A DNA stretch of 64,000 nt from positions 65,142-129,141 of the forward strand of contig DATNEA010000082.1 of assembly GCA_035606845.1 (NCBI GenBank), written 5' to 3'. Both the position numbers and the translations under genes were made by a program. The DNA comes from Candidatus Angelobacter sp. (lineage in GTDB: Bacteria > Verrucomicrobiota > Verrucomicrobiia > Limisphaerales > DASXHY01). The notes below the pieces were generated by a model. That model did no database searches and had not been told where the DNA came from. It worked only from the letters and a program-made list of their open reading frames with translations. Shown piece after piece: positions 19,352-43,640 of the stretch (position 1 is the stretch's first letter; each line of letters opens with the position of its first letter).

Positions 19352-19426
19352 GCCAATGTAGCTCAGTGGTAGAGCAACGGTTTCGTAAACCGTCGGTCGC
19401 CGGTTCAATCCCGGCCATTGGCTCCA
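19352..19426 (+). tRNA. tRNA-Thr (anticodon CGU), CCA encoded
   Basis: Hand-folded cloverleaf: acceptor gccaatg/cattggc, D stem gctc/gagc, anticodon stem acggt/accgt with loop ttCGTaa, T stem gccgg/ccggc with loop ttcaatc, discriminator t, then cca. Confidence 0.9.
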
Positions 19427-19496
19427 CTTCTTTGCAACTGTCTTGCAGGGACTTAGGAAGCATGGTTTGTCCACCTTCAGTGAAAGTTTCAGCGTA
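19404..19496 (+). repeat. copy T of the tRNA-3-prime-end plus trailer repeat (candidate attL)
   Basis: ttcaatcccggccattggctcca is followed 65 nt after cccggccat by cttcagtgaaagtttcagcgt. The same two blocks recur with 64-nt spacing at 34401 and 43518. Confidence 0.6.
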
Positions 19497-19600
19497 TTAG
19501 CTGCTCTGGCACCGTTCGGCATTGCTCGCCGACCGCTCCGCCACTGCTCGCTAACACAAACTTTCCGGGCTGTTTTACGCTCACAACCGTGAGTGATGAA

Positions 19601-20608
19601 ATGAAACAGCGTTACCGATTGTTTAAGCGAGGGTGGGGCACGTACTATTTTCAAGACGTTGAGACGGGCAAACAGGAGAGTCTTAAAACCCGAGACAAAC
19701 ACCAAGCCCGCACACTCGTTCATACGATGAACGAGGCCGTGCGGCAGCCGATGCTGAATTTGGACATTGCGCGCGCTTACTTGAAAGGTTCCGACTCGGG
19801 ATTTAATTCTCGGACTTGGGCGTGGGTGATGGAGAGAGCGGGGGAAGGCAAGCAGGGCGCCACAAAGGAACGGTGGCTTCGCGCGGTGGCGGAAAAGCCG
19901 TTCGATATAATTCGCGATCTCAAGCTGACGGAAACGAAGGCGGAGCATTTGTTGAGCGTCCTCAAAGAGGGGACGGTTTCCACAAACATTTTCTTACGTC
20001 GACTGCACAACTTCGCGCTCGATATGAATTGGCTTTTGGCGCCGATCATCCCGCGGCGTCAGTGGCGTCCGGTGAAATTTCAGGAAAAGCGCGCGATCAC
20101 ATTGGATGAGCACCAGAAAATCTTAGCTGGCGAACGCAATGAGGAATGGCGCGCCTTTTACGAGATGCTGTGGCACCTGGGAGGCTCTCAATCAGACGTG
20201 GCCACACTTCAGGCTGAAAACGTGGATTGGAAAAATCGAACGATTGCCTATTCCCGCATGAAGACGGGCAGCCACGCGCTTATCCGATTTGGCGAAAGTG
20301 TTGGGCGGATCCTTCAATCGCGTCCCAGGAAAGGGTTGCTTTTTCCTCAAATTGGAAGTTGGAAGGAATCGGATCGAGCAAAAGCTTTTTCACGTCGGAG
20401 GGCGCTGGTCGGAATCAACGGAATTACGTTGCATTCCTACCGGTACGCCTGGGCGGAGCGGGCTCTCACCGCCGGTTATCCGGAGCGCTACGCTCAGCAG
20501 GCCCTCGGGCATCGGAGCAGGGCTGTTCACACTGCTTATGCCCGCCGCGCGCTGGTGGAGGTTCCGTCATTGGAGCAATATGAGCAACCTGAGCCGAGCC
20601 CAAGGTGA
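19601..20608 (+). CDS. tyrosine recombinase/integrase of the tRNA-Thr island
   Basis: MKQRYRLFKRGWGTYYFQD... The C-terminal catalytic region has ITLHSYRYAWAERAL (HxxR-like) and QQALGHRSRAVHTAYARRA (His, then Tyr). ATG 19601 is preferred over the track GTG at 19589. It lies 175 nt downstream of the tRNA 3-prime end. Confidence 0.85.
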   Translation: MKQRYRLFKRGWGTYYFQDVETGKQESLKTRDKHQARTLVHTMNEAVRQPMLNLDIARAYLKGSDSGFNSRTWAWVMERAGEGKQGATKERWLRAVAEKPFDIIRDLKLTETKAEHLLSVLKEGTVSTNIFLRRLHNFALDMNWLLAPIIPRRQWRPVKFQEKRAITLDEHQKILAGERNEEWRAFYEMLWHLGGSQSDVATLQAENVDWKNRTIAYSRMKTGSHALIRFGESVGRILQSRPRKGLLFPQIGSWKESDRAKAFSRRRALVGINGITLHSYRYAWAERALTAGYPERYAQQALGHRSRAVHTAYARRALVEVPSLEQYEQPEPSPR

Positions 20609-20688
20609 TTGAATTGCGCAAGATTGCATTCTCGAAAAATTCAGAGGACGCACCACTCCGGCGGCAGTCAATAGCTGATGGATTATCA

Positions 20689-20715
20689 GGCCGTTGCGAT
20701 CGATGCACAACGGCC
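20689..20715. terminator. hairpin between convergent genes (the integrase and the 185-aa ORF)
   Basis: ggccgttg (20689-20696) pairs with caacggcc (20708-20715) around an 11-nt loop. Confidence 0.35.
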
Positions 20716-42500: not shown

Positions 42501-42696
42501 GGCGACCGATCGCGCGCACCGCATCGGCCAAACCAAGGTGATCACTAGTTACAAACTTATCACTCGTGACACGGTGGAAGAAAAAATCCTGCTGCTGCAA
42601 AATCGCAAACGAGAAATCATTCAATCGACCATCAGCGGGGACGAGGCGTTCGCCGAAACGTTGAACTGGGATGAGATTCAGGAATTGCTCGCATAA
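39598..42696 (+). CDS. SNF2-family helicase/translocase with an N-terminal SWIM zinc finger
   Basis: SWIM [17 protein letters not shown]. SNF2 motifs [28 protein letters not shown] and [21 protein letters not shown]. ATG 39598 is preferred over the track TTG at 39580. Confidence 0.9.
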   Translation: [1032 protein letters not shown]

Positions 42697-42715
42697 CCTG
42701 GCGACAACGATAGTC

Positions 42716-43426
42716 ATGACTTCTTTTACCTTACCTCCGGACTATGCCCGCGTTAAGCGCGTGCACAGTTTTCAGGAATTAATCACCACGCCTTTTGCCG
42801 ATGGCATCAATTGCTTCTGTTGGGAACGCACGTTATCTGGAGATTTCAGCGAAGTCGTAAAACACATTGCTATGCGGGAAGAAATCACCACTCTCGACGA
42901 GGCGCTTCTGCTGAGTCTTCCGGTGAGCGGAGCGGGCCGGCTGGCCGTTGAGCAACTTCTCGAAGATTATCGCCTGCTCAAGAATCACAATCTGGAACCC
43001 GCACTAAATTGCATTCGAGACTATCCTCGCGACGAAAATCCTGGGCCAGTGCGCACCGACGTTTTCTCCTTCCACGCCGACAGTGCCACTGTGGAGGCGG
43101 ACACCTACCTTTGCACTTATCACGGATCCGCGAGCGAGGGTTTGCGCAACCACGAGGCGCGCCGGCGCACAGATATTCCAGAAATTCGCGCCGAACTCCT
43201 AAAGCTTTTTGGCGGTAATGATGACGACGCCTTCCGCGAGTATCTGAAAGAAAATTGTTACGACCTCCATTATGCTCCCATTCCGTCGGCGCGATTTTTT
43301 TCCTTCGGAGTCGGTAATCTGTGGCGCATCGCAACGGACTATCCCGACTGTCCTGTTCCTCCGTGTATCCACCGCGCGCCCGAAACTCTACTCGGCGGAT
43401 CGCCGCGGCTGTTGCTGATCAGTTGA
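42716..43426 (+). CDS. hypothetical protein (236 aa)
   Basis: Clean ORF from ATG 42716 (MTSFTLPPDYARVKRVHSF...), 19 nt after the SNF2 stop. No domain recognised with confidence. Confidence 0.6.
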   Translation: MTSFTLPPDYARVKRVHSFQELITTPFADGINCFCWERTLSGDFSEVVKHIAMREEITTLDEALLLSLPVSGAGRLAVEQLLEDYRLLKNHNLEPALNCIRDYPRDENPGPVRTDVFSFHADSATVEADTYLCTYHGSASEGLRNHEARRRTDIPEIRAELLKLFGGNDDDAFREYLKENCYDLHYAPIPSARFFSFGVGNLWRIATDYPDCPVPPCIHRAPETLLGGSPRLLLIS

Positions 43427-43511
43427 AAAAATAGCAAGTAGATGTTGCTGATAACGTGTTTTCCTTCGTGCCGATGCGAAGCAGCCCAAACTGACGGCGC
43501 TCGACGAACTG

Positions 43512-43640
43512 GATTGACCCGGCCATGGACTCAACTCTTAACAATGCAGTGCCAAGTGGTTACAAGTGGGGCAGGGGAGGGCTTCAGTGAAAGCTTCAGT
43601 GTTTGTTGATCAATCAATGGCGGGCTTCTGTCGGTGCCTG
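43512..43640 (+). repeat. copy B of the tRNA-3-prime-end plus trailer repeat
   Basis: See copy A. It also shares 19 of 21 nt (cttcagtgaaagcttcagtgt) with the trailer of the real tRNA-Thr, at the same offset from cccggccat. Confidence 0.8.

Follow-up and report, generated by a model that had tools for sequence, protein, structure and literature searches.

The question raised by this locus was why the 3′ end of a single tRNA-Thr gene should occur three times in one orientation, at the edges of two adjacent segments of which only the first carries an integrase gene. The locus lies in a 64-kb stretch of DNA (the window; source contig ena:ERZ27256653:k141_398535) from a soil lineage that groups with Verrucomicrobiota relatives. 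A first-pass annotation of the window had described the tRNA end, two degenerate copies of it and a second block behind each, and had read the arrangement as attachment (att) sites left by tandem accretion of two islands. By similarity, the three copies were shown to be homologous pieces of one putative att module belonging to a large family of tyrosine-integrase islands. The explanation that we favor, with moderate confidence, is that islands of this family entered serially at tRNA-Thr, so that copy 1 is the left attachment site (attL) and copy A the right attachment site (attR) of the present island, copy B is a copy of a relic, and the second segment is chromosomal. The features on which this explanation depends are as follows.

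19352-19426 (+): tRNA-Thr(CGT), the integration target; from the T-loop on, its 3′ part is included in copy 1 (ARAGORN; Rfam tRNA, 72.7 bits)
19427-19600 (+): trailer (P′ arm) and integrase leader, island DNA kept with the integrase (L003 compared with L098; homology to L001, L004 and L010)
19404-19495 (+): copy 1, the live attL unit, which consists of the tRNA from T-loop to CCA, the 21-nt block cttcagtgaaagtttcagcgt at 19475-19495 and, between them, about 50 nt of trailer (pattern matches, invariance of the core)
34396-34487 (+): copy A, a relic att unit at the junction of island 1 and chromosome, with its block at 34465-34485 (pattern, blastn, nhmmer)
43513-43604 (+): copy B, another relic att unit, paralogous to A, with its block at 43582-43602 (pattern, blastn, nhmmer)
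19601-20608 (+): int2, a tyrosine integrase of 335 amino acids from ATG, or 339 from GTG at 19589 (Pfam Phage_integrase, phrog_1)

Three copies of one att module

Pattern searches located the tRNA-end motifs ttcaatcccggccattgg at 19404-19421, ttcgacccggccatgg at 34396-34411 and ttgacccggccatgg at 43514-43528, and the coordinates first given for the tRNA-Thr end and its two degenerate copies proved to be right. The second block was also found at all three places and nowhere else: the pattern TTCAGTGAAAGCTTCAGTGT, with up to 3 mismatches allowed, matched the 64-kb window only at 19476, 34466 and 43583, where 0.01 matches were expected. These positions exceed the annotated ones (19475, 34465 and 43582) by 1 nt because the search pattern omits the first base of the block. 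A composite pattern of CCCGGCCAT and TTCAGTNAAAGNTNCAGNGT separated by 50 to 63 nt had three matches in the window, all on the + strand, and none in 100 shuffles. The spacing from CCCGGCCAT to TTCAGTNAAAGNTNCAGNGT was 56 to 57 nt in all three copies.

Copies A and B were 85.4% identical over 89 ungapped nt (34399-34487 against 43516-43604; blastn E value of 6e-16), and the hand count of 76 identical positions out of 91 for 34398-34488 against 43515-43605 was matched. A profile was then built with nhmmer from the tRNA plus trailer of three other loci (L001, L004 and L010), the window being left out. This independent profile matched the tRNA locus of the window with an E value of 1e-79, copy B (43518-43618) with 2e-8 and copy A (34400-34492) with 4e-7, and the next-best match in the window had an E value of 0.06; the similarity thus held under the proper alignment score that had been asked of it. 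Homology of the copies began in the T-loop and 3′ strand of the T-stem (profile position 58) and ended shortly after the block (about position 150 to 160), so that the repeat takes in no more of the tRNA than its 3′ part, as had been observed. In Smith-Waterman comparisons the similarity of copy 1 to B was significant, with 0 of 500 shuffles reaching the score, and that of copy 1 to A alone was marginal, with 21 of 500 doing so. A reciprocal profile of A and B retrieved the trailers of other islands.

The 22.6 kb spanning A and B were 100% identical in contigs from two other samples, and the arrangement is therefore not an assembly artifact. No further units or tRNA fragments were found in the window by blastn-short or nhmmer; a 20-nt T-arm-like match on the − strand (4865-4884) was treated as chance (E value of about 0.5).

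The island boundary lies at the tRNA 3′ end

The tRNA-Thr(CGT) gene is the sole tRNA gene of the window and is identical in L001, L003, L098 and L099. Two of these loci located the boundary of the island. L003, from another sample, matches the window at 100% identity from the first base of the tRNA on and has a cyclophilin gene upstream. L098, a conspecific contig, has the cyclophilin gene (97 to 98% amino acid identity, divergence of 0.04 at 4-fold sites) followed by tRNA-Thr, trailer and integrase. L003 and L098 did not differ at any of the 512 nt that lead up to the tRNA and include it; a mismatch first occurred 5 nt past the CCA, and identity was then 90 to 93% through the trailer, the block and the integrase gene. 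The boundary between chromosome and island is in or at the tRNA 3′ end, and this break in identity marks the trailer with its block as island (P′ arm) DNA. A crossover located after the block, which would make both tRNA and trailer chromosomal, was rejected on the same divergence.

The trailer between tRNA-Thr and the integrase gene is 175 nt long. Its block core, CCTTCAGTGAAAGTTTCA, was invariant in five distinct trailers whose integrase genes were 67 to 94% identical at the nucleotide level, and the approximately 50 nt ahead of the block varied freely among the five. The 21-nt block contains two TTCAGYG half-sites 12 nt apart; it lies about 50 nt past the CCA, and the integrase gene starts about 105 nt downstream of it. 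L099, whose integrase gene is a pseudogene, has a decayed block as well, and this ties conservation of the block to a live integrase. From its invariance and position, we read the block as a putative binding site for the integrase or an excisionase, or as an operator of the integrase gene. A candidate hairpin after the CCA, supposed to carry compensatory changes, was dropped when RNAalifold detected 0 compensatory pairs in the five trailers.

An integrase family with variable cargo

The int2 gene stands directly 3′ of the intact tRNA, as is typical of a tRNA-targeting island. Relatives of int2 number more than 6700 in metagenomes, and the catalytic residues H278, R281, H304 and Y313 (HxxR, H and Y) were invariant in 30 members of the family. 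A scan of 185,579 species-representative genomes (GTDB representatives) gave one match, L001, an uncultured Verrucomicrobiae metagenome-assembled genome (MAG). The matched site was itself a tRNA locus, with the same tRNA, the same trailer and an integrase gene 89% identical to int2 in nucleotides. Homology between the window and L001 ran from tRNA base 1 to the integrase stop codon only, and the same was true of L004 and L010.

The module of tRNA-Thr(CGU), trailer and integrase gene was present in at least 6 other contexts with different cargo. Its nucleotide identity to the window was 94% in L098, 89% in L001, 70% in L004 to L009 and 67% in L010, and the module was also present in L099. The contexts of three integrase relatives (L004 to L010) combined it with unrelated cargo, and the cargo behind it differed among L001, L004, L010 and L099. 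Variable cargo was thus found together with a boundary in the tRNA (L003 against L098), as expected of an island that targets a tRNA gene. Furthermore, divergence between the window and L001 at 4-fold sites was lower in the integrase gene (0.36) than in the neighboring cyclophilin gene (0.56), which fits horizontal movement of the module. Searches of viral contigs by pattern, single protein and protein alignment gave only two matches to an integrase at a contig end and one chance match.

Two side observations concern these loci. Positions 10908-11700 of L099 hold a decayed family member at a tRNA-Thr site, with an integrase pseudogene of about 150 codons and a degenerate 21-nt block; behind it come a WD40/DUF5122 gene, a further integrase fragment and a transposase gene. 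The MAG from which the window comes is named Candidatus Angelobacter sp. by NCBI, whose taxonomy places that name in Acidobacteriota, and all close relatives of the window genes are labeled Verrucomicrobiae, Verrucomicrobiota or Limisphaerales; the name is probably a collision or a mislabel.

Island 1 ends at copy A

The cargo of island 1 occupies 20609-34133 on the + strand and was identified by domain searches.

21602-25388 (+): PD-Lambda-4_A-like region
25455-27266 (+): NACHT NTPase
27157-29265 (+): HEAT-repeat protein
29532-34133 (+): 1533-amino-acid protein with an NCAB2 domain

The stop codon of the last island gene is at 34133, and related chromosomes are homologous to the window from 34744 on. 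Copy A is the sole tRNA-like sequence in this gap of 610 nt, and for this reason it was assigned as the right junction of island 1. It is a co-oriented tRNA 3′ fragment at the distal boundary of the island: it starts at the T-loop and lies on the same strand as the tRNA, although it is degenerate. The first-pass annotation had proposed an integrase-bearing island here, and the right edge of that segment does coincide with copy A. These results indicated that segment 1, of about 15 kb, is a genuine integrase-bearing defense island. Copy 1 is its live attL and copy A is taken as its attR; for these two copies the original reading, as att sites of a tyrosine integrase that targets the tRNA, is supported. 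No homologue of the island 1 cargo or of the flanks of A and B was found in any other locus fetched. The PD-Lambda-4_A-like region consists of two overlapping open reading frames (149 and 1133 amino acids) that match consecutive parts of the PD-Lambda-4_A model; either the gene is frameshifted or split, or the overlap is programmed.

Segment 2 is chromosomal

Between A and B lies segment 2 (34744-43448, no strand assigned), a conserved block with the following genes, identified from Pfam matches and from colinearity with relatives.

34759-35532 (−): YgjP-like peptidase
35562-36503 (+): CvfB
36596-36883 (+): HU
36951-39569 (−): DUF3516 DEAD-box helicase
39580-42696 (+): SNF2 helicase
42671-43426 (+): protein of 236/251 amino acids

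The whole of 34744-43448 was colinear with L011, L012 and L013 at about 84% nucleotide identity. Most of it was shared, at 80 to 85%, by L094 (without CvfB) and L095 (without YgjP), and the short contigs L014 and L015 carried part of it. No tRNA, integrase gene or repeat unit was found near the block in these seven related contigs. The helicase was 92 to 93% identical in protein sequence to many metagenomic proteins, and its divergence from the unit-free relatives at 4-fold sites was about 0.41. No integrase pseudogene was detected after A or B by tblastn with both integrases or by Pfam analysis of 34.4 to 43.6 kb. The genes beyond B are also ordinary chromosomal ones (GNAT, CNNM, P-type ATPase, four Usp paralogues, transporters and others).

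Segment 2 had been regarded as an older, integrase-less island, a view that its six genes, colinear in relatives that have no tRNA, integrase or repeat, do not support. It resembles a cis-mobilizable element (CIME) in having co-oriented att-type sites at both ends and no integrase or transfer genes inside. Its interior is not that of a decayed foreign mobile element, being a chromosomal block conserved in the 7 related contigs. Segment 2 therefore consists of chromosomal genes that look vertically inherited and are bracketed by two old att relics; it is not what is left of a foreign island.

The flanks of the block in the relatives differed from those in the window and from one another. Among 80 metagenome helicase loci, synteny of the block was confined to close relatives; no neighbor was shared at helicase identities of 86% or less, and no repeat unit was present in any of the 80. 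Because the flanks differ in each relative and no neighbors are shared at that distance, we conclude that the host lineage rearranges a great deal. One distant helicase locus, L075, has an unrelated tRNA-Thr, without the block.

A and B as probable copies of one displaced relic

Copies A and B both begin at the T-loop position and end just past the block, and outside these limits they resemble neither each other nor the family. They share several departures from the tRNA, namely, T-loop changes, CATTGGCTCCA altered to CATGGACTYAA and loss of the CCA. Such shared departures would not be expected of tRNA ends decaying independently, which suggests that A and B are copies of one relic that was already displaced, or that they were homogenized later. 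The best match of the A/B profile was to trailers of the L004 type (27.5 bits), and trailers of the window type were not reported at an E value of <0.1. As the trailer part matches the L004 type best, the relic appears to derive from another subtype of the same island family, hence from an earlier occupant of the site.

A and B differed at 13 of 89 positions (0.146). When this value is set against the divergence of about 0.41 at helicase 4-fold sites, the duplication would postdate the split from the unit-free relatives, provided that the units are neutral, and this order of events matches the absence of units in those relatives. The relics lie close to the conserved block, at 257 nt on the A side and 65 nt on the B side.

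Proposed serial integration at tRNA-Thr

Under the favored explanation, an incoming circular island would have recombined with the tRNA gene at or near the T-loop and the 3′ strand of the T-stem, as predicted by the general model for tyrosine integrases; the copies have no long exact match other than CCCGGCCAT. The island would have brought a new tRNA 3′ end and, behind it, the island's own arm with the conserved 21-nt block, and the sequence that formerly followed the crossover point would have moved to the far end of the island. The site would already have been occupied by another family member when the lineage of the present island arrived, since A holds arm-type sequence of a different subtype. 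That earlier element would have been displaced, and erosion would have left about 92 nt of it as a relic, which the present island may now use as its right junction (A), and a second copy of the relic (B) would have ended up beyond the adjacent chromosomal block. The bracketing of segment 2 would most likely have arisen by Campbell-type (single-crossover) insertion or capture at the relic. The neat boundaries of the units favor such an event over random segmental duplication, because site-specific recombination adds an att copy only by inserting a circle. The position of the crossover, the binding of a protein to the block, any present-day activity of A and B and the route to B are the parts of this scheme that we infer. 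Of the tandem accretion originally proposed, the part that stands is the origin of A and B as relics from an earlier member of the family; the part that does not, given its gene content, is segment 2 as an older integrase-less island.

The T-stem-region crossover class is common at tRNA genes, with 1836 of 3919 islands in the Islander collection, and tandem arrays are common (PMC4383910). Tandem accretion and att-flanked, integrase-less remnants are documented (PMC5704250), and accretion with gene capture is described for ICESt3-type elements in work cited there.

Several observations weigh against serial integration as set out above. Only 9 exact nt (CCCGGCCAT) are shared by attL and A, and the T-loop equivalents differ, being TTCAATC in attL and TTCGA-C in A, which is poor for a recent attL/attR pair. 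No empty tRNA-Thr site was found: all relatives recovered, a small sample, were occupied (L001, recovered by pattern; L098 and L099, recovered via the upstream cyclophilin gene). No second example of the far end of a family island was read, and no arm-binding domain was detected by Pfam in the 335-amino-acid integrase. Just past the block, the similarity between A and B and that of both to the family break off at one and the same point, which is awkward unless a single truncation preceded the duplication or attP/attB homology ended there. Finally, no donor or mechanism was identified for a circle carrying the core block.

Alternative explanations

The close fit of the relics to the chromosomal block could also be accounted for if the 24 kb from copy 1 to B form, or once formed, a single cis-mobilizable unit, with B as its outer attR and A as an internal att site. 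The neighboring chromosomal block would have been picked up by excision at an alternative site and then re-integrated. Such a composite would explain why the relics lie within 257 and 65 nt of the block, and would make A and B orthologous or allelic versions of one relic, in keeping with their 85% identity and shared substitutions; gene capture by accretion has a parallel in the ICESt3-type elements already mentioned. Against this, neither a second copy of the segment 2 block nor a donor or polymorphic arrangement was seen, the three samples being identical, so that mobility receives no backing from polymorphism, and several unobserved steps are needed. We consider the composite unlikely. A related proposal, which we find doubtful, is that functional att sites enclose the 9-kb housekeeping-type block (HU, two helicases, CvfB and YgjP) and permit its excision, or its co-transfer with the defense island, through recombination of attL with B or of A with B. 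The int2 gene is intact and the A and B units carry the family block, yet their cores differ from attL in the T-loop. If this is correct, accretion would have captured genes of the chromosome in an uncultured Verrucomicrobiota-like lineage, at a tRNA that is also used on its 5′ side by an unrelated relaxase element.

Alternatively, B may be a passive duplicate of A, or A of B, produced by homologous or illegitimate recombination and having neither a site-specific history nor a present function, in which case only copy 1 and A matter. This fits a lineage in which synteny around the block differs in each of 5 relatives and is lost at helicase identities of 86% or less. The derived changes common to A and B are also in line with it, and two sequences do not allow constraint on the units to be demonstrated. 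The limits of the similarity argue otherwise: it starts at the T-loop and ends exactly where family homology does, whereas a random segmental duplication should bring non-family flank on at least one side. We therefore regard passive duplication as improbable.

It is more doubtful still that segment 2 is a decayed, integrase-less foreign island, a CIME in the strict sense, which was first at tRNA-Thr and beside which island 1 accreted later. Co-oriented att-type units do bracket the segment with no integrase inside, decay followed by accretion is well documented (PMC5704250), and the flanks of the block, which differ in every relative examined, leave room for mobility of the block. However, six housekeeping-type genes are colinear at about 84% nucleotide identity in relatives where no tRNA, integrase or unit adjoins them, and the helicase is conserved at 92 to 93%. 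Segment 2 and the chromosomal cyclophilin gene have diverged to a comparable extent, the derived substitutions shared by A and B are unexpected for independently displaced tRNA ends, and no remnant of integrase or transfer genes is present.

The first-pass annotation had also offered a tRNA-derived dispersed repeat, such as a miniature inverted-repeat transposable element (MITE) or a repetitive extragenic palindromic (REP)-like element, or a family of small-RNA genes; three similar units of about 90 nt in intergenic DNA might suggest this, but both readings were rejected as extremely unlikely, because there are only three copies in 64 kb, co-oriented and all downstream of a single tRNA, none in 1.27 Mb of related loci besides same-strain contigs, a single match among the species-representative genomes (itself the tRNA locus), no terminal inverted repeats reported at the units, folding energies no better than those of shuffles (z of −0.4 to +1.4 for both strands of the three copies), a single compensatory pair for A and B by RNAalifold, and no Rfam match (at gathering and E-value thresholds), promoter or terminator. 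The A/B-type pattern had no match in a metagenome contig collection either, a weak negative since the Joint Genome Institute (JGI) contig Ga0134128_10001120 (L097), which carries A and B, was also unmatched; either the collection lacks some JGI contigs or the scan missed them.

Relationship to known systems

Overall, this is a known kind of system with one oddity, the bracketing of core genes by relics. As described in PMC4383910, which draws on Williams (2002), Islander-type tRNA islands of the T-stem crossover class have the integrase gene directly downstream of an intact tRNA, as here. They share with the present island a tRNA 3′ end supplied by the island, a co-oriented T-loop/T-stem fragment at the far end and variable defense cargo. 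The present island differs in having a degenerate far-end fragment, with 9 exact nt, and about 75 nt of island-arm sequence behind it. It also belongs to an uncharacterized family from uncultured soil Verrucomicrobiota-like bacteria.

The accretion of ICESt1 and ICESt3 and their CIMEs (Pavlovic 2004 and Bellanger 2011, as cited in PMC5704250) offers a second parallel, with three co-oriented att-type sites delimiting two adjacent segments, one with and one without an integrase gene, and with an internal site that carries the arm of a different, related element. In contrast to the CIMEs as presented in that source, the integrase-less segment here consists of conserved chromosomal genes, and its two att-type sites are paralogues of one relic. 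The 21-nt block is reminiscent of the P′ arm sites of lambda-like integrases: it is a short conserved block with two direct half-sites, about 50 to 70 bp from the presumed crossover and in the integrase-proximal arm. The comparison is qualified by int2, in which no arm-binding domain was detected, and the block here is possibly an operator or promoter element of the integrase gene.

The att module (the tRNA-Thr(CGU) target, the crossover region and the invariant 21-nt arm block) defines a new, very large and uncharacterized family of integrases and islands that moves defense cargo among uncultured soil bacteria, and it provides a practical signature for mapping such islands in MAGs. The locus also gives island callers a warning: direct repeats of the att type can enclose ordinary genes of the chromosome, and a check of synteny in relatives is needed. 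Should the block be mobilizable, accretion would have captured chromosomal genes in a lineage other than the Firmicutes and Actinobacteria, the groups in which such capture has been studied.

A separate element on the 5′ side of the tRNA

The 5′ end of the tRNA gene is abutted by a separate integrative element with the following features.

1-19351 (no strand assigned): left element, whose left end lies beyond the window (recognized by int1, the relaxase and the ParA-like gene)
18155-19258 (−): int1, a tyrosine integrase only 23% identical to int2
10104-13040: TrwC relaxase
8887-10071: ParA-like gene

The left element is probably mobilizable or conjugative. It is an insertion polymorphism, since in L003, L098 and L001 its place immediately 5′ of the tRNA is taken by the cyclophilin gene. 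Only a minority of islands, 159 of 3919 in Islander (PMC4383910), lie on the 5′ side of a tRNA gene. At the right end of the element, 40 nt (19267-19306) recur at 92% identity beside tRNA-Thr in the unrelated contig L008. The first 8 nt of the tRNA, GCCAATGT (19352-19359), recur 22 nt upstream at 19330-19337, within the right end of the element; this repeat may be part of its core site or may be due to chance.

Two other repeats were noted in the window. Beyond B, the four Usp paralogues (51422-56160, − strand) account for the direct repeat families D1 and D2, of 57 to 110 nt. In the left element, a 25-nt inverted repeat with 96% complementarity and a 23-nt loop lies at 8325-8397, within the 1.3 kb of intergenic DNA that precede the ParA-like and relaxase genes, and is a candidate origin of transfer (oriT) or regulatory hairpin of this element.

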